Shown: one piece after another, positions 7,321 through 32,000 of the stretch
Numbering within the stretch: position 1 is the stretch's first letter
Layout of the letters: each line of letters starts with the position of its first letter
Source: Nanobdellota archaeon
GTDB taxonomy: Archaea > Nanobdellota > Nanobdellia > Pacearchaeales > GW2011-AR1
Assembly (NCBI GenBank): GCA_030611805.1
Contig: JAUWPB010000009.1
Coordinates: 1 to 32,000, forward strand
DNA: 32,000 bases
Direction of reading: 5' to 3'
Made by a program: the position numbers and the translations under genes
The notes under the pieces: generated by a model
Database searches by the model: none
What the model was told of the DNA's origin: nothing
The model's input: the letters and a program-made list of their open reading frames with translations, nothing else

Positions 7321-7800
7321 TTAGATTTTTTTCTTCATTTCATAACGAGATATTTTAAAATCTAATTTATCATAAAAATTTGTGGCATTTTTGTTTTTCT
7401 TATTTACTAATAAACAAATTTCTTCATATTTTCTATTTTTAAGATTTCTAACAAACTCATTTATTAAAAATGTTGCAACTCCCTTTCTCCTAAATTCTTT
7501 TAATACAAAAATATCTCCAACATAACCCATTTTGGTACAGAGACTATTAAAGAATATTTTTTGAAGACTTTGTTTGCTAAATAAGACCCCTTGAATATAT
7601 CCTATCAGTTTACTTTTTTCTTCAGCAACAATTAATAAACTTTTTCTAGAATGTAGAATACTATAAAATTCTTTCTTAAAAATAGAATCTATTGGAGAAA
7701 TTAATTCTTTTCCAAAACTAATGAGATAATCCTCTTTTCTGTATTTTTTTAAATTTAAATATTCTTTGAAATCTTTTTGTATGGCTTTTCGTATCTTCAT
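7321..7800 (-). CDS. GNAT family N-acetyltransferase
   Basis: 159 aa with acetyl-CoA motif A (EFRRKGVATFLINEFV). Its start overlaps the stop of the upstream radical SAM gene as ATGA at 7797-7800. Confidence 0.8.
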   Translation of the reverse strand: MKIRKAIQKDFKEYLNLKKYRKEDYLISFGKELISPIDSIFKKEFYSILHSRKSLLIVAEEKSKLIGYIQGVLFSKQSLQKIFFNSLCTKMGYVGDIFVLKEFRRKGVATFLINEFVRNLKNRKYEEICLLVNKKNKNATNFYDKLDFKISRYEMKKKI

Positions 7801-8963
7801 TTTCTTAGCAAAGAATTTTGAAGTGTTTGATAATAGTTTTCAGAGGATTCTTTCCAGCGTGTTTTAGATTTTTCATAAAGTTCTGCAAAAGAATCTTTTT
7901 TAATATTTCCAAAACCTTTTAGGGGATGTTGCATTAAGTCTTCACAGAAATCCGTTACTATTCCCTCTGGACCAATTCTAAATCCACTATAATTTACTAA
8001 AGGTAAAATAGTTAAGTGAGCAAAAGTTTTCGGAGAGTCATTGATTGGGAAAAGTAAAGATGGAGCAAAATCTTCTAAAATTGCAGAATTTTGTTTTTTA
8101 AAATAACCTTGATTCCAGAGACCAGCAACAATCTCTGAATTTTCTTTGCCCATTAAATTAAGAGTTATACTTTTTATATTTTTTGAAGCATTTTTTAATT
8201 GGTCTATGGTTTTATAAAAAATATCTTGTGTTGGAATTAATGATAAATCATTATACGATGTTTCAAAACAAAATCCAACACTAAGATAATCTAACCCAGC
8301 ATTTACTAAATCAGGCAACATTTTATCAAGAGAATTAACATTATGAGTCATTGTCGTAAAATTGGCAGTTAAATTTTCTAATCCTGCTTTTTTCGCTGTT
8401 CTTAATCCTTCTAATGCTTTTTGATAATTTCCTTGTCCTCTTATTTTATCGTGATTAGGTTCATCTCCATCAAAACTTATGCTTGTGAAAGAAAAATTAA
8501 ATTGCTTCAGCCAATTAATTTCTGAAGGTATGAGCGTTCCATTTGTAAGTATCCTATAATTTAATCCCCTATTTTCTGCTGTTTCTAAAATTATTTTTGT
8601 TGTGTCTGGAGACAGAAGAGGTTCTTTGCCTACTATAGACAATGTCCTAACTCCAAAATCTTTTGCATCATAAATAAGGTTTTTCCAGTCTTGCGAAGTT
8701 AAATCATCTTGATTAGAATATTCATTTTGAATATGGGTGTCAGCAAGATAGCAATGAGAACATTTTAGGTTGCAAATTCTGTTTACATCAACTCCCAATT
8801 CCAGACCCGAAGGTATTTTATCCCCCGAATTATTTCTTGTGTCATAAATTTCCTTTATTTTATCTCTCGCATCTTTTGCTACTTTTCTAAAATCTCTTCC
8901 ATTTGCTAAATCATCCATTATTCCAAATTGGAAATCTATAAACTCGTTATGTGTTTCAGTCAT
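7797..8963 (-). CDS. Radical SAM protein (AnSME/PqqE-like core, no SPASM/twitch Cys motif)
   Basis: CNLKCSHCY is a CX3CX2C motif. GKEPLL matches the GGEPLL-type SAM-binding motif, and ILTNGTLI is present. Outside the cluster triad there are only two other Cys (VGFCFE, DFCEDL). Confidence 0.85.
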   Translation of the reverse strand: MTETHNEFIDFQFGIMDDLANGRDFRKVAKDARDKIKEIYDTRNNSGDKIPSGLELGVDVNRICNLKCSHCYLADTHIQNEYSNQDDLTSQDWKNLIYDAKDFGVRTLSIVGKEPLLSPDTTKIILETAENRGLNYRILTNGTLIPSEINWLKQFNFSFTSISFDGDEPNHDKIRGQGNYQKALEGLRTAKKAGLENLTANFTTMTHNVNSLDKMLPDLVNAGLDYLSVGFCFETSYNDLSLIPTQDIFYKTIDQLKNASKNIKSITLNLMGKENSEIVAGLWNQGYFKKQNSAILEDFAPSLLFPINDSPKTFAHLTILPLVNYSGFRIGPEGIVTDFCEDLMQHPLKGFGNIKKDSFAELYEKSKTRWKESSENYYQTLQNSLLRK

Positions 8964-9001
8964 TTTATTTTTTAATTAATTTAGAAATCATCTCTATTAT
9001 A

Positions 9002-9232
9002 TTACCTAATCTCCATATCTACCGGAATCACTGATGCGCCAAAACCTACAGAAGCAGAATGTCCACTTATATTTGGTTTAATATCTTTATTATATTTTGT
9101 ATAGCCAGTATTTTGAGGTATTACTCCTGCTCCAAAACTAATTCCGGCAGAATATCCACTTACATTTGGTTTAATTCTTTCTTGGCTCATACTTATCTTT
9201 TCCAATTTATTTATTTGTTCTTTAGTTTTCAT
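9002..9232 (-). CDS. Small repeat-containing peptide, candidate RiPP precursor
   Basis: 76 aa. The leader-like MKTKEQINKLEKISMSQER is followed by two units IKPN[VI]SG[YH]SA[GS][IV][SG]FGA[GS]VIP at aa 20-39 and 51-70 (14/20 identical). A TATA-like box lies ~27 nt upstream, and the radical SAM gene starts 38 nt downstream. Confidence 0.55.
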   Translation of the reverse strand: MKTKEQINKLEKISMSQERIKPNVSGYSAGISFGAGVIPQNTGYTKYNKDIKPNISGHSASVGFGASVIPVDMEIR

Positions 9233-9516
9233 TTAATAGTAAGTATACATTAGATTATATAAAACCTTTGGGCTTATTTTTAACCCAAAACCGAAAGATT
9301 TATTAATTACTTAAGCATTTATCCTAAATATGAAAAATAATAAAACACAAACCTCAAGAGAAGAAGGCTGGATAGTTCAACTTCCAGAACAAAGAAAAAA
9401 AATCAAACTTGACAAAAAAGACAAACTAATTCTTCAGGCTTTAACAGAAAATGCAAGAACTACTCTAAAGACTCTTTCAAAAATGACGCTTCTCTCAAAA
9501 AATAGTATTCAATCTT
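9230..9516. repeat. Copy A of a ~287-bp direct repeat (divergent promoter region plus the first ~62 codons of an Lrp/AsnC gene)
   Basis: It aligns by eye with 10410..10696 at a constant offset of 1,180 bp. Examples: acattagattatataaaacctt at 9247 and 10427; ggctggatagttca, aatcaaacttga and ctaaagactctttcaaaaatgac are shared. Confidence 0.85.
9255..9264 (-). promoter_or_regulatory. TATA box for the peptide/radical SAM/GNAT operon (leaderless spacing)
   Basis: The minus strand reads TTTTATATAA, centred ~27 nt upstream of the ATG at 9232. The element is also part of the duplicated module. Confidence 0.45.
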
Positions 9517-9533
9517 GTAAAATCTTTTTTTGA
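9330..9533 (+). pseudogene. Truncated Lrp/AsnC-family regulator paralog (HTH part only, 67 codons)
   Basis: MKNNKTQTSREEGWIVQLPEQRKKIKLDKKDKLILQALTENARTTLKTLSKMTLLSKNSIQ is nearly identical to the N-terminus of the 358-aa protein at 10510. It then diverges (SCKIFF) and stops. It could still be a stand-alone HTH protein. Confidence 0.5.
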
Positions 9534-9713: not shown

Positions 9714-10385
9714 TTATTTTCTCGGAGCAACCAAATCTACAAGATACTCTGCCGTATTTCCATCATTGATATAAGGATTAAAACGATAAGAAGCATTTTC
9801 CCACCCAGAAGATTTAAATTTTTTAACAAAGTTCTTTTCTATAAAAATATTTGTGATATTGGAACGATAAGAATGACCACAATCTCTTTTAGGATTAACC
9901 TTTACATTCATCTCAGAAACCAATATCTTAACTTCTAAATCTTTCAAATCTTCTCGAAGTTCTTCTATTTGTCTTTCATAATAACTTTTATCAAAAGCGA
10001 GAAAACCCTTTTCATTGGTTTTATATTTATTCCTAATATAATCCTTTATCTTCATTATAGTTTTTTGTTTTGTCGCTTTTGTTTCTTTTATTGAATAGTT
10101 TTCCCACAGAAGAGATGGTTGATGCAACATAAAAGATTTTCTTACAAAAGAGGGATCATCATATCTAATTTTTAATTTTAAAAGTTGAGAATCTTCTATG
10201 TAATCTGTTCGAGATAAACTTAAATCAACATCTCTTTCTAAACTAGTTAAAATTTTTTCTGCCGATGTATAAACATAATCTTTTGAATGAGATTCAACTT
10301 CATGCTTTATTGAACTTAACTCTTTAATAATTTTATCTTCTAGTTGTTGTTTTTTCTTAATAAATAAATTGGGTGATATTGCCAT
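9714..10385 (-). CDS. Hypothetical protein (223 aa)
   Basis: A long open frame with no recognisable motif. It sits behind copy B of the duplicated divergent promoter. Confidence 0.6.
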   Translation of the reverse strand: MAISPNLFIKKKQQLEDKIIKELSSIKHEVESHSKDYVYTSAEKILTSLERDVDLSLSRTDYIEDSQLLKLKIRYDDPSFVRKSFMLHQPSLLWENYSIKETKATKQKTIMKIKDYIRNKYKTNEKGFLAFDKSYYERQIEELREDLKDLEVKILVSEMNVKVNPKRDCGHSYRSNITNIFIEKNFVKKFKSSGWENASYRFNPYINDGNTAEYLVDLVAPRK

Positions 10386-10409
10386 TTTCTTATTTTCTAT
10401 ATTTGTATT

Positions 10410-10696
10410 TACTTAATAATAACTACACATTAGATTATATAAAACCTTTTAATCAATTTTTAACCTAAACCCGAAAGGTTTATTAATTAATTAAGTGTTT
10501 ATTCTGGATATGAAAGAAGATAAAAAACAAAACCTAAAACAAGAGGGCTGGATAGTTCAGCTCCCAAAACAAAAAAAAGAAATCAAACTTGATAAAAAAG
10601 ACAAAATTATCATTCAGGCTTTGACGGAAAATGCGAGAACTACCCTAAAGACTCTTTCAAAAATGACTCTCCTCTCAAAAAACAGCGTCCAAAACA
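10410..10696. repeat. Copy B of the ~287-bp direct repeat
   Basis: See copy A. Here the repeat continues into a full-length regulator gene. Confidence 0.85.
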
Positions 10697-11586
10697 GAAT
10701 AAAAAATTATGAAAAATCTGGATTAACACACAACTCTTCAACTTTTATTGACATTCAAAAATTAGGTTTTGAAATGTACCAAATTGGAATTAAAACAAAA
10801 ATGACTTTAGCCCAAAAAGAAAAATTTATTGAACACTTGAAAAAAATAAAGTTCTTAAATCAAATAATTGTGTTCTCTTCTTCGCACTGGGATTTTTTCA
10901 TAAGATTATATGCCAAAAATTCAGAGCAATTTGATAAAATAGTCACCCAAATAGATTCATTCAAAAACATAATTCATTTTGACATCCTCCCTTGTGAAGA
11001 ATGGAATTATCATCCAGTTAAACATTTTAATGAAAGATTAGACTTAAATAAATATATAAAAAAAGAGGACACATCATTTCAAAAAACATTCGGCACAAGA
11101 AAAAAGAATCATAAAAAGATTTCATTTGACAAAAAAGATTTGGAAATTCTAAAATTCCTAAGCCATAATGCGAGAGCACCTTTAGTGGAAATCGCTTCAA
11201 AGCTTAAACTTTCTCCAGACACCATTAAATACAGAATGAAAAATTTAATAGAGCAAGGCATAATAGAAAGTTTTTTCATAAACCTAAACCCTTACTTATT
11301 TGGTTACTCTGCTTATTTCTTTTTCTTCCAAATTTTCAATAGAGAGAAAATAAAAGAAATAATGAACTATCTGGCAAGTCATTCAAAATGCACAGGAGTT
11401 ATAAAAACTAAATCCACCTGGAATTTACTCGGAACAATTTTGCTTAAAGATGTCCATGAACTTAAAAACTTTGAAGAAGAGTTTTTCGCAAAATTTGAAA
11501 ACTATATCCACAACTACGAATTTATTCAAATATTAGAGCAACCACATTATAAAATGTTTATGAGGGAAATAATTAATTTTAAATAA
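10510..11586 (+). CDS. Tandem (two-module) Lrp/AsnC-family transcriptional regulator
   Basis: There are two HTH_AsnC-like segments: LDKKDKIIIQALTENARTTLKTLSKMTLLSKNSVQNRIKNYEKSGL and FDKKDLEILKFLSHNARAPLVEIASKLKLSPDTIKYRMKNLIEQGII. Each is followed by a ~100-aa RAM-like region. I chose the ATG at 10510 by alignment with the paralog; the track start at 10495 is a GTG. Confidence 0.8.
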   Translation: MKEDKKQNLKQEGWIVQLPKQKKEIKLDKKDKIIIQALTENARTTLKTLSKMTLLSKNSVQNRIKNYEKSGLTHNSSTFIDIQKLGFEMYQIGIKTKMTLAQKEKFIEHLKKIKFLNQIIVFSSSHWDFFIRLYAKNSEQFDKIVTQIDSFKNIIHFDILPCEEWNYHPVKHFNERLDLNKYIKKEDTSFQKTFGTRKKNHKKISFDKKDLEILKFLSHNARAPLVEIASKLKLSPDTIKYRMKNLIEQGIIESFFINLNPYLFGYSAYFFFFQIFNREKIKEIMNYLASHSKCTGVIKTKSTWNLLGTILLKDVHELKNFEEEFFAKFENYIHNYEFIQILEQPHYKMFMREIINFK

Positions 11587-11606: not shown

Positions 11607-12125
11607 ATGCAAAAGATTAAAGCACACATTATTGGAGAAATTATTTTTAGCAATACTTCTGAGGCTCATGCACTTTATAAAAAAAGTCGCTTCGGGGAAA
11701 AAGTCGGGGAAAAAATCCAGTACTCTCTTTCAGAAACTCTGTTTTTAGTTGAAAAAGGAAAAATGGATGTCCTCTCGAGAAATAAAAAAATTCCTAAAAA
11801 AGAATTAATGAACAAGTTCAAAAGAATAGACAAAAAAATCCAGATTAAATATCCTGTGTTTAAAGATTTAAGAGAAAAAGGTTACATTGTTAAGACAGCC
11901 TTAAAATTCGGGGCAGAATTCAGGGTTTACGACAAGGGTTCAAAACCAGGGAAAAAACATGCGAAATGGATTGTGTTCACAGACCATGAATCTAAAAAAA
12001 TAACATGGCATGAGTTCTCTGCAAAAAACAGGGTCGCACACTCAACAAAAAAACACCTGCTTTTAGCAATCCTTGACGAAGAGGGCGATATAAGTTATTA
12101 TGAAGTTAAGTGGGTGAAACCTTAA
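11607..12125 (+). CDS. endA: tRNA-splicing endonuclease (short, homotetramer-type)
   Basis: 172 aa. SLSETLFLVEKGKMDV, GYIVKTALKFGAEFRVYDKG and HAKWIV match the EndA N-terminal and catalytic C-terminal domains. Confidence 0.9.
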   Translation: MQKIKAHIIGEIIFSNTSEAHALYKKSRFGEKVGEKIQYSLSETLFLVEKGKMDVLSRNKKIPKKELMNKFKRIDKKIQIKYPVFKDLREKGYIVKTALKFGAEFRVYDKGSKPGKKHAKWIVFTDHESKKITWHEFSAKNRVAHSTKKHLLLAILDEEGDISYYEVKWVKP

Positions 12126-17060: not shown

Positions 17061-17083
17061 CACAATCCTTGGTTCTATTATAT

Positions 17084-17156
17084 GCGGAGGTGGCACAGCG
17101 GCTACTGCAATCGGTTGCAGCCCGGTTTTTCGTGGGTTCGAGTCCCATCCTCCGCT
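17084..17156 (+). tRNA. tRNA-Cys (GCA)
   Basis: Hand fold: acceptor GCGGAGG/CCTCCGC, anticodon arm ATCGG-TTGCAGC-CCGGT, T arm GTGGG-TTCGAGT-CCCAT. The discriminator is U73, the Cys identity element. 73 nt, no intron. Confidence 0.88.
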
Positions 17157-17170
17157 TATTAAAAAAGAAA

Positions 17171-18046
17171 ATGCTCCCTTGGTATATTCTGTCACTAACA
17201 TCCGCCGTGTTCTCAGCAATGGCTGCAATAACTCAAAAAAAAGTCCTGTTTAAAGAAACAGCTCTTGGATTTTCAACACTGGTTGCAATATTTAATCTAA
17301 TCATCGCTATTCCTTTTTTCTTTTTCATAGACTTCTCAAATCTTACTTCCTCGGGATTATTCGTTTTATTTATTAAATCTATTTTAGGAGCAGTTTCATT
17401 TCTTTGTGTGATGCTTGGAATAAAAAATCTTGAAATAAGCAGGGCTCTTCCTTTGCTGGTTCTTACACCCGGATTAGTTGCATTTTTCGCATTTTTATTT
17501 TTAGGAGAATCTCTTTCTAATATTGAAATTATGGGAATGCTCTTCCTTATTGCAGGAACATATTCCCTTTCACTGAAAAAAAGACAAGAATTAGAAGACC
17601 CTGTTGAAGAGTCAATTAAACCAAAAGGGCATTATTATATTATTGCAGCTCTTATTTTATTTACAATAACTGCTATATTAGATAAAGCTATTTTAACGGA
17701 TTTTAAGGTTCCATTAAATACTTTTATGGGATTTCAACACTTATTTTTAGCAATAATATTTTTTACAATAATCATTTTTTCAGGAAAAACCAAATCCGTC
17801 AAATCCAGTTTTAAAAATTCCTGGAAGTTTATTTTATTAATTTCTTTTATTACAATCACATACAGATATACTCATTTACTGGCAATAAAAATCGCTCCTG
17901 TTGCACTTGCACTTTCTCTCAAACGGGTTTCTGTATTTATTGCAGTAGTAATCGGAGGGACATTATTCAAAGAACATAATCTTGTAAGAAAAATAATAGC
18001 AACAATAATAATGACTATCGGAGCAATATTAATTATTAATGGTTAA
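17171..18046 (+). CDS. EamA/DMT-superfamily transporter
   Basis: ~10 TM segments in two EamA-like halves. I chose the ATG at 17171 because the track start at 17069 runs through the tRNA-Cys gene. Confidence 0.8.
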   Translation: MLPWYILSLTSAVFSAMAAITQKKVLFKETALGFSTLVAIFNLIIAIPFFFFIDFSNLTSSGLFVLFIKSILGAVSFLCVMLGIKNLEISRALPLLVLTPGLVAFFAFLFLGESLSNIEIMGMLFLIAGTYSLSLKKRQELEDPVEESIKPKGHYYIIAALILFTITAILDKAILTDFKVPLNTFMGFQHLFLAIIFFTIIIFSGKTKSVKSSFKNSWKFILLISFITITYRYTHLLAIKIAPVALALSLKRVSVFIAVVIGGTLFKEHNLVRKIIATIIMTIGAILIING

Positions 18047-22704: not shown

Positions 22705-22801
22705 TGCCCCGGACAGGATTTGAACCTGCGACCTACTGCTTTCTTCCTTTCTTTCCCTTTATTAGAAGGCAGTCGCTCTATCCAAGCTGAGCTACCGAGG
22801 C
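22705..22801 (-). tRNA. tRNA-Arg (TCT) with a canonical 22-nt intron after position 37
   Basis: The reverse complement folds as follows: acceptor GCCTCGG/CCGGGGC, D arm GCTC..GAGC, anticodon stem ACTGC/GCAGT, loop CTTCTA[intron ATAAAGGGAAAGAAAGGAAGAA at 22741-22762]A, T arm GCAGG-TTCAAAT-CCTGT, discriminator A. Confidence 0.88.
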
Positions 22802-26537: not shown

Positions 26538-29500
26538 TCAAAAAGCATAAAATGTATCCACAGTAATCTCAGAACCAACTATAACTTCTATTTCTGAAGG
26601 ATCATAAACTTTAAATCTGTAATGATTCTCATCATAATTCGCCATACTTTGCCGAATCAAATTAACCTCATAAGGCAGATAAAATCTTTCATTAATCTCT
26701 TTCACACTTGTTTGAAAAATAAACTTATCTACTTTGCTTCCAAAAACAGATGGATTATAAATCTCCAAAAAATAACCTTCACAATTTTCCATTGAAGTGA
26801 TATCTAACTCCACATAAACTTTCCCTGGAGAAACATCTCTTTTTCCTATAACTTGTAGGGATTTATCAACCCACCGAGCATTTTTAATGCAAGGATCATT
26901 CGCTTTTACATATTCTTTCGGAGAGTTCTCTTCTATATTCAACTCTGCAGAAATCACTTCAGATTCATCATACCAAAGCAATTCCTCATTTGAATCATAA
27001 CAATAAACTTCTGCATAAAAATCAAACACTAAACCTGAATCTTCAAGAGCAACCAACTCTTCAAGATTAAATTCAATAATATTTTCATTAGATATCCCTT
27101 CAGCTCTTTTAGAATCAGGAAATAAATTATCCAGTCCAAACAAATTTCTCCTATGAATAATATTATATTTAATTGAATCACAAATAAAATCAACATGAAG
27201 TATAAGTTTATTTGTTCCTTCCATTTGATAAAAAGAAACACTCTCGGAATCACTTTCAGATATCTGGCTTTTTGGCTCACTGGACATTTCAACTACAAAA
27301 TCTGTAGAGTACTTTACATAATATTCAAATACTTTTAAAACATAATTTTGAGTTTCTAAAGGCAAGTCATCTTTACAATCAGAAAAGTATTTCCCAGCAC
27401 ATTTTTTTTTAACTTTGGTTGGTCCAGCATTATAAGCAGCAATTGCTAACTCATTATCGGTTATTCCATAAACCTCTTGTAAACATTTAAAGTAACAAGT
27501 TCCCAAATTCACATTTGTTTTTGCTCCTTCAAAAGTGTTTTCTTTCCACTTTTCTTGATAATAATCATTACATAAAGAATAACATGGTTTGCTTGAGTCT
27601 TTGATATCATCAACTGCTCCAACTACTTTAGCTCCATTGGTTCCTCTTTCAAGCAATTGCATTAAACCAGTGCTTCCATCTGGACTAATTGCGTCTTGAT
27701 TCCAATTACTTTCCACACGAATAATCGCTTTAACCAGATTTTCATCCACATTTTGCTCTTTTGCTATCTTCTCTATCATATCCTTGTAATCTTTCATTTT
27801 CGCAATCTCTTTTTTAGCTTCCTCTACACTTCTACTATCCTCTCCATTTTCAAGCTCTCCAACCAAACCAGAATAAGCATTTCCCCTTAACAACAATAAC
27901 TCAGCTTTCTCTTTATTTAAAAACGCTTTCTTCATCACCTCCTCGCTAATCTTACTAACTGCTTCTTCAAAAAATTCCCTTTCTCCCCTACTCTTACCTT
28001 CTTCAATCAACTCTCTAATTTTTTCAACCAAATCATTAAATACACTTTCTCCAAAATATCCTCCCTCTTCTTTCAACAACTCCAATTGACTTTTTGCATG
28101 TTCTTCTAAAACTCTCTCCTCAATATCAGTATGCTTAATCACATTTTCAACACTCTTTTTATCAAGCCAGCATTTTATATTTTCCTGACCGCAATTACCA
28201 ACCTGAATCCATCTCGCACCCTCGCCATCCCAAGCCCCGTCTGTTCCTTTTCCCGGACTCTCTGTCGCACAAATCCTGATTATCCCTCTGTTGTAAATCG
28301 CAGGATTAATCATCTCATCTGCAGCTCCTTCCAAACTCGGGCTCAGCAAACTATACGCACTCACACTTCCTCCAATACACTCTTTCTCTAATTTAATATC
28401 TCTCTCACTTGCCTGCTCTTCCATATATCTTTCTCTAACATAATTAACTGCGTATGACGTCGAGACCTGCTTAAACCCGCACTCTTCCTGATTATTAACC
28501 ATGATACATAACTCCTTGTAACCAGAAGGCGCAGTAAAGTCCTTTGTCTCAGTTGCATATCCTCCTGTTGTAATATACCCAGAAGCAACATTTCTAATCG
28601 GGGTGTCTTGGTAAAACGAAGTTCCAGGCGGGCTCTTTAAATAAACTCTGTAGTAAGCCCGTGACTCTTTCCCGGCATAAATATGGTAAAACACTTTGTA
28701 GTGTGAGATTGGCGGACTTGTTGCAGTTGTAAATGGTATCTCGTCAAACCTTCCATGAAACTGGGGCGGGGAGTCTGGCTCTGTTAAACTATCAAGCAAA
28801 TTCCCTCCATCTGGATAACTTGCTGAAATAGAACTCTGGCAAACAGCGTCGCCCACTCCTTCTACAATCCTTGCCTTAAACGCCTGATAAGAACTCGCAG
28901 CATAATACTGCGCAAAATAATCTATTGATTTCTCAGCATTAGCCCACGCAGTCGCAACACCCAAATACTCTCCTCCTCCTCGCACATTCTGCCCCATTGC
29001 AATTTCCATCATTTTTGGAATAATTATTTTAGCCAAAGGCAAAGACTGTCTCCAGAAAAACTCGCACAAGTGAATGCTATAAATCTCGTCGCAGATTCCA
29101 ACCATCTTGCCAGTGTCCAGACTCTCCTGCAAACAATCCCTATAAGAAGTATAAACAGAAATCAGCCCATCAATCCCTGCCTTTATTCCAGTCAAACAAA
29201 CAGGAATTTTAACTTCAGGCCAATTAGGCAGGCACAATGCAATACTCCCAATTATCCCTGACTGAATTACATCTTTAACATGATAAGTTCCTCCAAAATT
29301 ACACCTGCTTGAAGGACACACCACAGGGTCGCAGACATTGAAAAGCAACTGGCAATCTTTCGGTGACATAAAACTCTGGCACTGCATCTCCGGCACATCA
29401 ACAGCAGGTTCACACACCCGAACACTCTGCCCATTAATCATTATACTCTTCCCTGAACTTGCTGACTTCTGTTTTCTTGAAGCTTCTGCAATAGCATCCT

Positions 29501-32000
29501 TGGCATCATTTACAATCTTCAAAGACACACTATCACTAAGACCTGAAATTTTAATTGGCTGTCCTGTTCCTGTATTTATCATAGTGCAGTCATCATCTGG
29601 ATTTCTATTTTGTTCAATTCCATTCTTTCCAACATTACAAACCCAAAAACTCTCTACTCTTCCTGACTCGCTATAAGATTTAATCCCCCCAAAAACAGGA
29701 AGTACTTGTGAAACTGAAGCATACCACCCATTTTTTAAATCAAAAGGCACAATCGCAGGAAGTCTTTTACCTGGCTCTGTCTCATAATATCTCAGACAAG
29801 GAGTTTTCTTCCCAAGAGAAGATATGTAAGGATTTTGATATGTTGAAGAATCTCGTTTTTCATAAATTAATCTCAAAGGATTTCTTTGATTATTCTTATC
29901 ATCTCCTGTATATTCTTCCAAAGTATTAATTCCCTCTTTGCTCGTAGCAGTAATCTCATAAGTTTTTTCTACAGAATTATCATCATCTAACATAAGAATA
30001 TATTCACTATTTGTTGTAGGGTCTTTATAATTCTGGACATGTTTATCATTATCTATAGTTGCTCCAGAGTATTTTTCATCCACAGAACCCCATTTTACAT
30101 CTTGGGTAAAAGGAATTTTCTTTTGTCTTTTATCAAACGACATTATATGTACTTCTGGAAAACCTGTTCGCTCAGCAAAATTAGTCATTTCTTTAGCATC
30201 TTTATTACTAACCCAGATACTTATAATATCTTTTTCAATTTTTTTATCCGCCATCTCTTTTAATGAACCAGTAAGCTGTGAATTCAAATTTAAACTTTTT
30301 AATTCACTTATTGAAACAATATCTTTTTTTAGATAATTATCAACAAAATTATTAACTTGAATTGTTGTTCCTTCATATTTAATTCCTTTAGGAAACTTTT
30401 GATTAAGATTAGTTTTTAATTTTTCAACAAAATCTTCATCATCAAGCAACTTTTCTTTAAGTTTTTCATTATTAATATTTCTTTCTCCCAACCAATTTTT
30501 TGTAGTTATTTCTGAGTCATCTTGTAAATCCTCAAAATAATCATTGTGTCCTTTTAATGCTTCATCATATTCATCAACAGCATCATTAATATACTTGCTC
30601 TTCTCAACAAAACATTCATTCAAAGTCTTATAACCCTCTTCCCCCCAATCTCCTTTTCCATTAATCGCATTTGCACACATTAAATTAATTTCCGTCATAA
30701 CTTCTTGTCTTGCAATTGCTTTTCCCCCGGTGTTTGCGAAAAAATTCTTCACAGTCAAAAAAGTCCCTGTCGCCAAACACGCTGTCTTAAGCCCTTGCAC
30801 AACCTTGCCAAGCTGTTCAGACTTTTTTTCCCAACCCTCAATTGTCTTGTTCAACTGCTCAATTTTTTCCCTTGTCTTCTCAGGAGAAAGTTTTATCGCC
30901 CTTTGCTCAATCCCAATCTTAAAACTAAAGTTCGCCTCTGTCCCTGCATTATTAATATTCGGAACAACAGAAACCTTTACTGATTTTTTCAGGTTTATTT
31001 TTGTTAAAGTGAAAATATAACCACTGCCTACACTCTCTGAAACACCTTCTTTTAAGATTTTTGTATCACTAGAAATTGTAGCTTTCTTAATTGTTTCCCA
31101 TACTCCTTCTGGAAGAAGATTAAGTTTTATTTTGGCTTCGCCATCATCTAAAGAAATAAGTTGAACAGTCTCTTTAGTGCTTTCATCTGCATCTCTAAAT
31201 TCATCTAAATAAATAATCTGGTTTTTTCCAAAAGAAAAAGATGTTGTTTTCCCATTAGGACCGCTTACTCTTATCTCAGCACTATATTCCTTCAAAGTTG
31301 GCTCATAAACTCCATCAAAAGAAATCCTTTTAACCACTCCACTAATTGAAACATCTCTGCTCGCAATTTCAGAACTTGAAAGCTTATATAAATCATCACA
31401 ATATTTTTTCAAATCCTGTTTAGAATCAGGGTATTGGTTTTTAAATTCCTTGCACAAATCAATAATTGTTTTTTTCTGCTCCGTATTCCATGCCAAAAGT
31501 ATCTTCCTATACAAGGCCTCTTCACCATAAGTTATTTTAGTATTTGAAATTTGTTCAAAAGGAAAACTTTTAATAATTAAATTATAATCTTGGTTTGCTG
31601 ATTCATAATACTCTTTCTTTTCCTCGCCAAAACCTTTATCAACTGCTCCTGCAAAACCAATTATCTCTATTTCTTTTCCTCCAATTCTTGTGGTTTTTTC
31701 TGAATAAGAAAGACGAGTAAGAGATGTTCCATCAGTTAACCATTTGTAAAAATTTGTCGCTACACCAACATAAACCTTGCCTAAATTAAACATAAAATCA
31801 GCAACTCCTACTCCTGTCACTTTTTGATATTCATAAGAATATACTAATCTATTAATAGAAGAAAGTTCATCTTCAGTTAATCCATCAATAGTTCTATGCT
31901 GAGGTATTGCAACAAAATAAAAATATAAATTTTTTAAATTTTCAGTATCTCCTTTTGTCCCAATATAACCAAGATAAACAGATTTTTCATTATCATCTGT
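26538..32000 (-). CDS. Giant (more than 1,820 aa, 5' end outside the window) Cys-rich protein with an embedded lytic transglycosylase (SLT/GH23) domain
   Basis: The 1,760-codon track ORF starts at a GTG. Hand translation shows the same frame stays open from 31821 to 32000 (...IDGLTEDELSSINRLVYSYEYQK-VTGVGV...). The SLT motif is listed as a separate feature. Confidence 0.85.
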   Translation of the reverse strand, partial: TDDNEKSVYLGYIGTKGDTENLKNLYFYFVAIPQHRTIDGLTEDELSSINRLVYSYEYQKVTGVGVADFMFNLGKVYVGVATNFYKWLTDGTSLTRLSYSEKTTRIGGKEIEIIGFAGAVDKGFGEEKKEYYESANQDYNLIIKSFPFEQISNTKITYGEEALYRKILLAWNTEQKKTIIDLCKEFKNQYPDSKQDLKKYCDDLYKLSSSEIASRDVSISGVVKRISFDGVYEPTLKEYSAEIRVSGPNGKTTSFSFGKNQIIYLDEFRDADESTKETVQLISLDDGEAKIKLNLLPEGVWETIKKATISSDTKILKEGVSESVGSGYIFTLTKINLKKSVKVSVVPNINNAGTEANFSFKIGIEQRAIKLSPEKTREKIEQLNKTIEGWEKKSEQLGKVVQGLKTACLATGTFLTVKNFFANTGGKAIARQEVMTEINLMCANAINGKGDWGEEGYKTLNECFVEKSKYINDAVDEYDEALKGHNDYFEDLQDDSEITTKNWLGERNINNEKLKEKLLDDEDFVEKLKTNLNQKFPKGIKYEGTTIQVNNFVDNYLKKDIVSISELKSLNLNSQLTGSLKEMADKKIEKDIISIWVSNKDAKEMTNFAERTGFPEVHIMSFDKRQKKIPFTQDVKWGSVDEKYSGATIDNDKHVQNYKDPTTNSEYILMLDDDNSVEKTYEITATSKEGINTLEEYTGDDKNNQRNPLRLIYEKRDSSTYQNPYISSLGKKTPCLRYYETEPGKRLPAIVPFDLKNGWYASVSQVLPVFGGIKSYSESGRVESFWVCNVGKNGIEQNRNPDDDCTMINTGTGQPIKISGLSDSVSLKIVNDAKDAIAEASRKQKSASSGKSIMINGQSVRVCEPAVDVPEMQCQSFMSPKDCQLLFNVCDPVVCPSSRCNFGGTYHVKDVIQSGIIGSIALCLPNWPEVKIPVCLTGIKAGIDGLISVYTSYRDCLQESLDTGKMVGICDEIYSIHLCEFFWRQSLPLAKIIIPKMMEIAMGQNVRGGGEYLGVATAWANAEKSIDYFAQYYAASSYQAFKARIVEGVGDAVCQSSISASYPDGGNLLDSLTEPDSPPQFHGRFDEIPFTTATSPPISHYKVFYHIYAGKESRAYYRVYLKSPPGTSFYQDTPIRNVASGYITTGGYATETKDFTAPSGYKELCIMVNNQEECGFKQVSTSYAVNYVRERYMEEQASERDIKLEKECIGGSVSAYSLLSPSLEGAADEMINPAIYNRGIIRICATESPGKGTDGAWDGEGARWIQVGNCGQENIKCWLDKKSVENVIKHTDIEERVLEEHAKSQLELLKEEGGYFGESVFNDLVEKIRELIEEGKSRGEREFFEEAVSKISEEVMKKAFLNKEKAELLLLRGNAYSGLVGELENGEDSRSVEEAKKEIAKMKDYKDMIEKIAKEQNVDENLVKAIIRVESNWNQDAISPDGSTGLMQLLERGTNGAKVVGAVDDIKDSSKPCYSLCNDYYQEKWKENTFEGAKTNVNLGTCYFKCLQEVYGITDNELAIAAYNAGPTKVKKKCAGKYFSDCKDDLPLETQNYVLKVFEYYVKYSTDFVVEMSSEPKSQISESDSESVSFYQMEGTNKLILHVDFICDSIKYNIIHRRNLFGLDNLFPDSKRAEGISNENIIEFNLEELVALEDSGLVFDFYAEVYCYDSNEELLWYDESEVISAELNIEENSPKEYVKANDPCIKNARWVDKSLQVIGKRDVSPGKVYVELDITSMENCEGYFLEIYNPSVFGSKVDKFIFQTSVKEINERFYLPYEVNLIRQSMANYDENHYRFKVYDPSEIEVIVGSEITVDTFYAF
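27400..27760 (-). other. SLT/GH23 lytic transglycosylase domain inside the giant ORF
   Basis: IIRVESNWNQDAISPDGSTGLMQL has the catalytic Glu in E-S and the GLMQ motif, with the Glu codon at 27711-27713. Downstream is AAYNAGPTKV (AYNAG motif, 27423-27440). Confidence 0.8.

Follow-up and report, generated by a model that had tools for sequence, protein, structure and literature searches.

What is a tandem-repeat peptide doing directly beside a radical S-adenosylmethionine (SAM) enzyme on the chromosome of a Nanobdellota archaeon? The question is raised by a set of minus-strand genes at 7321-9264 of a 32,000-nucleotide stretch of contig JAUWPB010000009.1 (hereafter the window), in which a small peptide gene is followed by genes for a radical SAM enzyme and a GNAT N-acetyltransferase. 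The genomes of DPANN archaea are minimal, little secondary metabolism is expected of them, and, to our knowledge, almost all characterized radical SAM peptide natural products are bacterial. We propose that these genes probably belong to a chromosomal, regulator-controlled cassette of DPANN-type archaea that modifies a peptide in the manner of a system for ribosomally made, post-translationally modified peptides (RiPPs), with epimerase-type chemistry. Taking all chemistries together, we consider it very likely that the peptide is the substrate of the enzyme. The window encodes TFB, the tRNA-splicing endonuclease EndA (11607-12125), SerRS, LeuRS, and four tRNAs, and is archaeal chromosomal DNA.

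The peptide gene lies where the preliminary description of this DNA had placed it, as a 76-codon open reading frame (ORF) at 9002..9232 on the minus strand. Its 76-residue, precursor-like product begins MKTKEQINKLEKISMSQER, a short polar N-terminal segment, and continues with two tandem units, IKPNVSGYSAGISFGAGVIP (unit 1, residues 20-39, DNA 9116..9175) and IKPNISGHSASVGFGASVIP (unit 2, residues 51-70, DNA 9023..9082). Self-comparison recovers them as a direct repeat (D2; 76% nucleotide identity, spacing 93 nt), and the units share 14 of 20 residues and 45 of 60 nucleotides at a period of 93 nt, in agreement with the earlier account. Since the best 20-residue self-match reached in 5000 shuffles of the 76-residue peptide was 9 of 20, the repeat is far beyond chance. 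The 20-residue length proposed for the unit fares less well: two such copies are present, but the true repeat period is about 30 residues, and the N-terminal ~16 residues alone are common to the window lineage. The TATA-like box reported about 27 nt upstream of the ATG was also found (TTTATATAA, 9263..9255, minus strand). Its center lies ~27 nt 5' of the ATG at 9232, a purine-rich AAAGG stands just before it, and the block is kept in a duplicated copy of this promoter. Because the box is so close to the ATG, the sequence suggests that the peptide gene yields a leaderless archaeal transcript.

Does the small ORF accompany the enzyme elsewhere? The neighborhoods of 12 enzyme lineages were recovered by exact-protein look-up, and 16 family loci were fetched besides the window. 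All 12 lineages read have an ORF with the unit directly 5' of the radical SAM gene and in the same orientation, the co-occurrence about which the preliminary description had asked. A thirteenth lineage is represented by the three-unit peptide P0086, which we infer to share a contig with enzyme P0004, each being listed with a longest contig of 3389 nt. One unit occurs in L161 and L176 and, as the N-terminal part of a fusion with a 197-aa GNAT, in L164; two occur in the window, L162/L163, L165, L169, L171, L172, and L173; three in L174/L175 and L170; and three plus a partial unit in L167. The unit consensus reads P-N-[IV]-S-G-x-S-T-x-x-G-Φ-G-R-G-G-x-P-K-x-x-x-Y-[IV], of which the window lineage keeps the first ~16 positions only, with FGAGV/FGASV instead of FGRGG.

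A hidden Markov model of the unit was run against 1.59 Mb in all and matched the window and 16 of 16 fetched family loci at E ≤ 5.5e-8. It matched no locus among 160 unrelated radical SAM loci (lowest E = 0.15), which had come from generic radical SAM motif scans and were reused as a negative control. The arrangement expected of a RiPP system, a precursor-like ORF beside a maturase, is thus seen in 12 of 12 lineages against 0 of 160 control loci, and this co-occurrence supports the earlier RiPP-type reading of the peptide, radical SAM, and GNAT layout. A model rebuilt without the window-lineage units and run on 41,166 ORFs again recovered the peptide of the window, at E = 1.2e-9. In the closest pair of loci, L161/L162, the ratio of nonsynonymous to synonymous substitution (dN/dS) is ~0.40 for the peptide and 0.21 for the enzyme. 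The preliminary description had made conservation of the small ORF a condition of its reading; from this ratio and from the unit profile matches in all family loci, the ORF is judged to be conserved and under purifying selection. No precursor family in Pfam or NCBIfam matches the peptide, a word-indexed search that took just the window peptide as its query returned only the self-match, and a two-unit profile search returned only peptides on contigs of the enzyme family. In L168 (3720-3972) a frameshift divides the coding sequence of a two-unit peptide between two ORFs, and in L169 (779-1030) the same peptide is intact; the L168 form reflects either an assembly error or a pseudogenized allele. 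The likeness of FGRGG and NISG to the GGQ and NIKS motifs of release factors was considered and, by judgement, set aside as coincidental.

The number of units changes even between near-identical strains, and its range across the family, from one to three plus a partial unit, answers the question, raised in the preliminary description, of whether the repeat number varies. The enzyme of L174/L175 is 100% identical to that of the window, while the peptide there has 114 residues and three units instead of two. From 9175 down to 6500 at least, the window and L174 agree in 99.85% of their DNA, and above 9175 the identity is ~88%. The breakpoint thus falls inside the repeat, which argues that recombination between units removed or added one 93-nt copy. 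L161 and L162 are related in the same manner. The window peptide is also seven residues shorter at its C-terminus: L174/L175 read on with QYNRDDF, and the window has a TAA (9002-9004) at the Gln codon.

What kind of enzyme acts here? The radical SAM gene (7797..8963, minus strand) encodes 388 residues and starts 38 nt past the peptide stop, and the motifs CNLKCSHC, GKEPLL, and TNGT ascribed to it were all found. Pfam PF04055 matches at 85.8 bits against a cutoff of 29.5 (core at residues 61-210), a match to Fer4_12 is weak or marginal, and the CX3CX2C cluster motif of the superfamily, C64-x3-C68-x2-C71, is invariant. The earlier claim that no SPASM or twitch motif is present stands: SPASM PF13186 has no match in the Pfam scan, and the only Cys beyond the cluster motif are C232 and C340. 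In an alignment of 17 family sequences, C340, in the motif D338-x-C340, is the sole invariant Cys outside C64, C68, and C71, and C232 (GFCFPT) is kept in 16 of 17. Conservation extends along the whole protein, including the C-terminal 150 residues. An AlphaFold 2 model (predicted local distance difference test score, pLDDT, 91.3) has an N-terminal two-helix hairpin, a partial TIM barrel, and a C-terminal β-rich segment followed by helices. Since an hhalign comparison with 15 SPASM proteins aligns residues 55-236 alone, the C-terminal domain appears family-specific, with no recognizable SPASM or twitch domain; modeled in isolation it reaches pLDDT 64, too poor for fold classification. By Pfam, Cys count, and profile-profile alignment alike, the enzyme lies outside the SPASM/twitch subfamily.

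Nor does it belong to any curated radical SAM family. The preliminary description had held that its reading would fail if the enzyme fell in a characterized non-peptide family, and no such placement emerged: all NCBIfam matches, among them NirJ1, AhbC, MoaA, WgkB, PapB, viperin, and BlsE, cover residues ~52-270 only and stay 3-10 fold under their cutoffs. For the heme, d1, and molybdenum cofactor families, the core-only scores are 93 versus 650 bits (NirJ1), 89 versus 650 (AhbC), and 80 versus 325 (MoaA). For prokaryotic viperin (pVip), NF038283 scores 55.9 versus 180, and the PADLOC pVip models match the enzyme core at 5.7e-16 over residues 60-186 only. The nearest sequence profiles among PDB entries are CteB and SkfB, then BlsE and anSME, again over the core only. 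The nearest folds found by Foldseek are BlsE, SuiB, SkfB, MoaA, CteB, anSME, PqqE, viperin, and, more distantly, EpeE, with TM-scores normalized to the query (TMq) of 0.38-0.58; the top match, BlsE, has E = 1.7e-11 and a target-normalized score (TMt) of 0.65.

Among 5.8 billion clustered proteins, 17 full-length homologs were identified (35-45% identity, 242-374 bits), after which scores fall from 242 to at most 86 bits and matches are confined to the core. When 1.84 billion representatives were searched exhaustively with a profile, ~17 proteins likewise scored above 260 bits, followed by a second tier of relatives at or below 192 bits that lack the N-terminal helices; none of ten second-tier relatives (P0107 and others) scanned against NCBIfam falls in a curated family. 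As judged from these searches, the clade is rare, discrete, and uncurated. One homolog is annotated from a Woesearchaeota metagenome-assembled genome, and another lies on an 841-kb contig. Generic radical SAM motif scans of genome and metagenome contigs gave, among the matches listed, AhbC-like and other SPASM loci and no family member. The cassette is so far known only from metagenomic DPANN-like archaeal contigs.

The GNAT gene (7321..7800, minus strand; 159 aa; PF00583, 55 bits versus a cutoff of 20.7) follows the enzyme. The radical SAM stop and the GNAT start share the sequence ATGA, an overlap claimed earlier and confirmed at 7797-7800. The GNAT reaches no NCBIfam equivalog (RimI 44 versus 86, HaaN 15.4 versus 250). 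A GNAT is present in 9 of the 12 lineages read. It stands directly 3' of the enzyme gene, often overlapping it, in the window, L162/L163, L176, L168/L169, L170, and L172, and 2 kb away in L161. The GNATs of the loci belong to at least three unrelated subtypes. Its membership in the cassette, as first proposed, therefore holds in the sense that most lineages have one adjacent, fused, or nearby, but not in the sense of orthology between loci. The unrelated subtypes suggest that an acetyltransferase function has been recruited several times, rather than being adjacent by chance. In L164 (4421-5014) the unit is fused to the GNAT N-terminus, and in L171 (598-921) two units flank short segments that match the N- and C-terminal ends of the L164 GNAT (BLASTP 1e-8 and 2e-6), an arrangement that, from the sequence, looks like a decayed unit-GNAT fusion. 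These fusions recall the borosins, in which the core is fused to a methyltransferase (OphMA), with the differences that a GNAT is not an N-methyltransferase, that the unit is N-terminal, and that fusion is exceptional in the present family.

A further part of the system lies outside the 7321-9264 interval to which the preliminary description had confined it. Every locus encodes a regulator of ~320-360 residues with two HTH_AsnC/HTH_24 domains; these proteins are orthologous, with 24-63% full-length identity to that of the window. The window protein is a double winged-helix Lrp/AsnC-type regulator of 363 residues (10495..11586, plus strand; two HTH_24/HTH_AsnC domains, 3e-22) with a marginal AsnC ligand-binding domain (0.021). 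Wherever enough upstream DNA was read, the regulator is divergent from the peptide gene, L171 excepted, whose upstream DNA has, on the same strand, no more than a C-terminal end that resembles the regulator. The triad made up of this regulator, the repeat peptide, and the radical SAM enzyme is tightly co-evolving and is usually joined by a GNAT.

How might such a cassette work? A small and probably leaderless gene would produce a peptide of one to four tandem ~30-residue units, its promoter controlled by the divergent double winged-helix Lrp/AsnC regulator. Within a unit, the N-terminal half that is conserved (P-N-[IV]-S-G-x-[ST]-[TA]-x3-Φ-G) may be the substrate or recognition element, so that every unit would bring its own recognition and a long leader could be dispensed with. 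The radical SAM enzyme would cleave SAM at its single CX3CX2C [4Fe-4S] cluster and take a hydrogen atom from each unit, and redox-neutral epimerization at Cα would follow, with a Cys thiol giving the hydrogen atom back. The likely epimerized sites are the conserved Ile/Val or hydrophobic positions beside the glycines. The GNAT, recruited independently in different lineages, could then acetylate the peptide N-terminus or a Lys. Strict co-occurrence, variation in the number of whole units, and unit-GNAT fusions argue that the peptide is the reactant. Epimerase-like chemistry is favored because auxiliary-cluster Cys are absent and one Cys, C340, is invariant (C232 is nearly so).

This combination resembles the described hallmark of the proteusin epimerases, which carry the radical SAM cluster only and one strictly conserved catalytic Cys, C372 serving as hydrogen donor in PoyD (PMC8326336). 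Those enzymes act iteratively on a ribosomal precursor and largely independently of its leader (PMC8326336), and proteusin and epipeptide epimerases target Val and Ile residues. The likeness to PoyD, OspD, AvpD, and PlpD is a match to that hallmark at the sequence level only, namely the missing auxiliary Cys and the one invariant Cys. Proteusin precursors, unlike the peptide here, have long nitrile-hydratase-like or Nif11 leaders, their enzymes have a C-terminal RiPP recognition element (RRE), and proteusins are bacterial where the present cassette is archaeal; the want of a long leader argues against PoyD-like membership. The YydF/EpeE (YydG) system of Bacillus subtilis shares the plan of a small operon with a short precursor and a radical SAM enzyme. 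EpeE epimerizes Val36 and Ile44, eight residues apart, using a Cys hydrogen donor (PMC8326336); the unit described here has two conserved hydrophobic positions nine residues apart, each with a conserved Gly within two residues. In contrast to the present enzyme, which lacks auxiliary-cluster Cys, EpeE has [4Fe-4S] clusters at two sites. Genes for a protease and an ABC exporter belong to the epipeptide operon, neither of which is conserved here, and YydF has a single core and no tandem units.

Several observations weigh against reading the cassette as an epimerase-type RiPP system. The assignment to epimerases draws on the missing auxiliary Cys and one conserved Cys, and C232, C340, and Asp ligands may instead hold an atypical auxiliary cluster. 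Similarity to EpeE is limited to the core (TMq 0.38), and the fold neighbors include the small-molecule enzymes BlsE, MoaA, and viperin. The N-terminal part of the peptide had been called a leader. A short polar segment is indeed present, but across loci it measures 7-28 residues and is unconserved, so that no recognizable leader can be assigned, and the RRE that a RiPP system would be expected to bring was not detected: neither Pfam, including PF05402, nor profile-profile alignment found an RRE/PqqD domain on the enzyme. No protease, exporter, or RRE protein is conserved in the family loci. Finally, all members of the family are metagenomic, and they are few.

Could the same enzyme act on the same peptide to give a product of different mass? 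An intramolecular C-C or C-O crosslink (an option named in the preliminary description), or hydroxylation or desaturation, on Ser/Thr, aromatic residues, or Arg would fit the nearest core sequences and folds, which are those of the crosslinking maturases CteB, SkfB, and SuiB. The SPASM/twitch maturases in general (CteB, SkfB, SuiB, PqqE, and the triceptide 3-CyFEs with their HaaN GNAT) also have a precursor gene directly upstream, and some share multi-repeat precursors and a tailoring GNAT with the present cassette. The unit offers conserved Ser/Thr, its second Gly is preceded by a residue that is hydrophobic or aromatic, and the window units have Tyr/His and Phe/Trp. However, the crosslinking radical SAM maturases known to us use SPASM or twitch auxiliary clusters, and the enzyme here has neither the Cys motif nor the domain for them, nor an RRE. 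The aromatic positions are moreover unconserved across the family, where Tyr/His gives way to S, A, T, or F and Phe to I, L, V, or M, and the window lineage has Ala instead of Arg; on balance we regard a non-isobaric product as unlikely. A substrate other than a peptide (a nucleotide, sugar-nucleoside, or cofactor, or a target in a viperin-like defense role), with the small ORF regulatory or accessory, would account for the missing RRE, protease, and transporter and for the fold neighbors, with BlsE as top match, MoaA and viperin near, and the PADLOC pVip core match noted above. BlsE, the cytosylglucuronate decarboxylase that is the best Foldseek match and among the top PDB sequence matches, is presumably without an auxiliary cluster. 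It acts on a nucleoside in the blasticidin cluster, no nucleoside-antibiotic genes are found here, and its model TIGR04466 scores 48.9 versus 400, so that it joins viperin and MoaA among matches that are core-only and far under their cutoffs. None of the conserved neighbors belongs to a nucleotide or cofactor pathway, and the enzyme clade strictly co-occurs with a repeat peptide that is conserved at the protein level, varies by whole units, and is fused to GNATs, all of which makes a non-peptide substrate very unlikely.

Chemistry centered on glycine would take the Cα hydrogen of a conserved Gly and lead to a glycyl radical, or to backbone scission or amidation that frees the units without a protease. 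The two glycines are the most conserved positions of the unit, and no protease is conserved in the loci. The VSGYSA and ISGHSA of the window resemble RVSGYAV and RVAGYSA of glycyl radical enzymes, whose signature we take to be RV[SA]GY. Against this likeness, the Tyr after Gly is unconserved, with an aromatic residue there in the window and L170 lineages only, and the pair falls outside the glycyl-radical activases and substrates as recognized by an RVxG[YFW] motif and a PflA/NrdG-type activase; no glycyl-radical activase is among the top NCBIfam, PDB, or Foldseek matches. Cα-radical intermediates have been reported to break the peptide in EpeE C223A (PMC8326336), which would suit scission. 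The case is weakened because neither Gly is strictly invariant: L176 has Ser in place of the first and one L170 unit has Ala there, while Val stands for the second in a single L169 unit. A short peptide is also unlikely to shelter a stable radical, and we consider glycine-centered chemistry highly improbable. Epimerization of the units remains our preferred reading.

Full-text literature searches found the cassette described nowhere, and the family is absent from Pfam, NCBIfam, and PADLOC. New are the precursor family and a radical SAM clade without auxiliary clusters; the cassette logic is that of bacterial radical SAM RiPPs. A bolder proposal, which we offer tentatively and consider possible at best, is that DPANN (Woesearchaeota-type) archaea have here a RiPP-like class of their own, the first of its kind, in which an undescribed maturase clade without auxiliary clusters works repeatedly on self-contained ~30-residue units by epimerization or by unseen chemistry, such as radical release of units at glycines. 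Its product, governed by a dedicated Lrp-like regulator, might then have a role in symbiont-host or cell-cell interaction. The presence of a regulated, conserved cassette in a reduced genome suggests that its product is worth its cost. The cassette is a small, readily cloned three-gene system for radical SAM peptide chemistry without auxiliary clusters, and the alignments of the precursor and enzyme families are directly usable for genome mining.

In the window, the region from the peptide gene to the regulator carries a duplication. A 300-nt segment spanning the peptide 5' end, the promoter, and the regulator 5' end is duplicated as direct repeat D1, its second copy (10379..10678) being 81% identical to 9199-9498. 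The copy beside the peptide operon retains only a 67-aa stub of the regulator N-terminus (9330..9533, plus strand), at the site of the intact regulator in the close relative L174, and the other copy has the intact regulator. The TATA box and promoter of the second copy face an unrelated 223-aa ORF (9714..10385, minus strand), which has no family match in PHROGs, Pfam, NCBIfam, or PADLOC and, from the position of the promoter copy, may be a second target of the same regulator.

Regulators of this type occur beside other genes as well. In L167 (4698-7972), a second cassette comprises a paralogous double winged-helix regulator, a divergent 29-aa ORF (MKPELESTTAESKYFELEKVTIDCTAKIE), and a 672-aa B12-binding radical SAM enzyme; the regulator family may generally control peptide and radical SAM modules. 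In L161 (2573-3764), on the 841-kb contig, a cyclodipeptide synthase (PF16715) and a GNAT lie directly past the regulator, and this neighborhood is a small secondary-metabolism cluster in a tiny genome.

Elsewhere in the window, an Rfam scan matched tRNAs and no other family, which rules out a structured RNA as the explanation of the region. The tRNA-Ile call at 22705-22801 spans 97 nt, has the anticodon at position 39, and thus probably contains an intron, which fits the presence of EndA in the window. The tRNA-Cys at 17084-17156 lies inside the 5' end of a TTG-started EamA ORF (17069..18046), so the true EamA start is probably further downstream. The largest ORF of the window encodes 1760 residues (26538-31820, minus strand).

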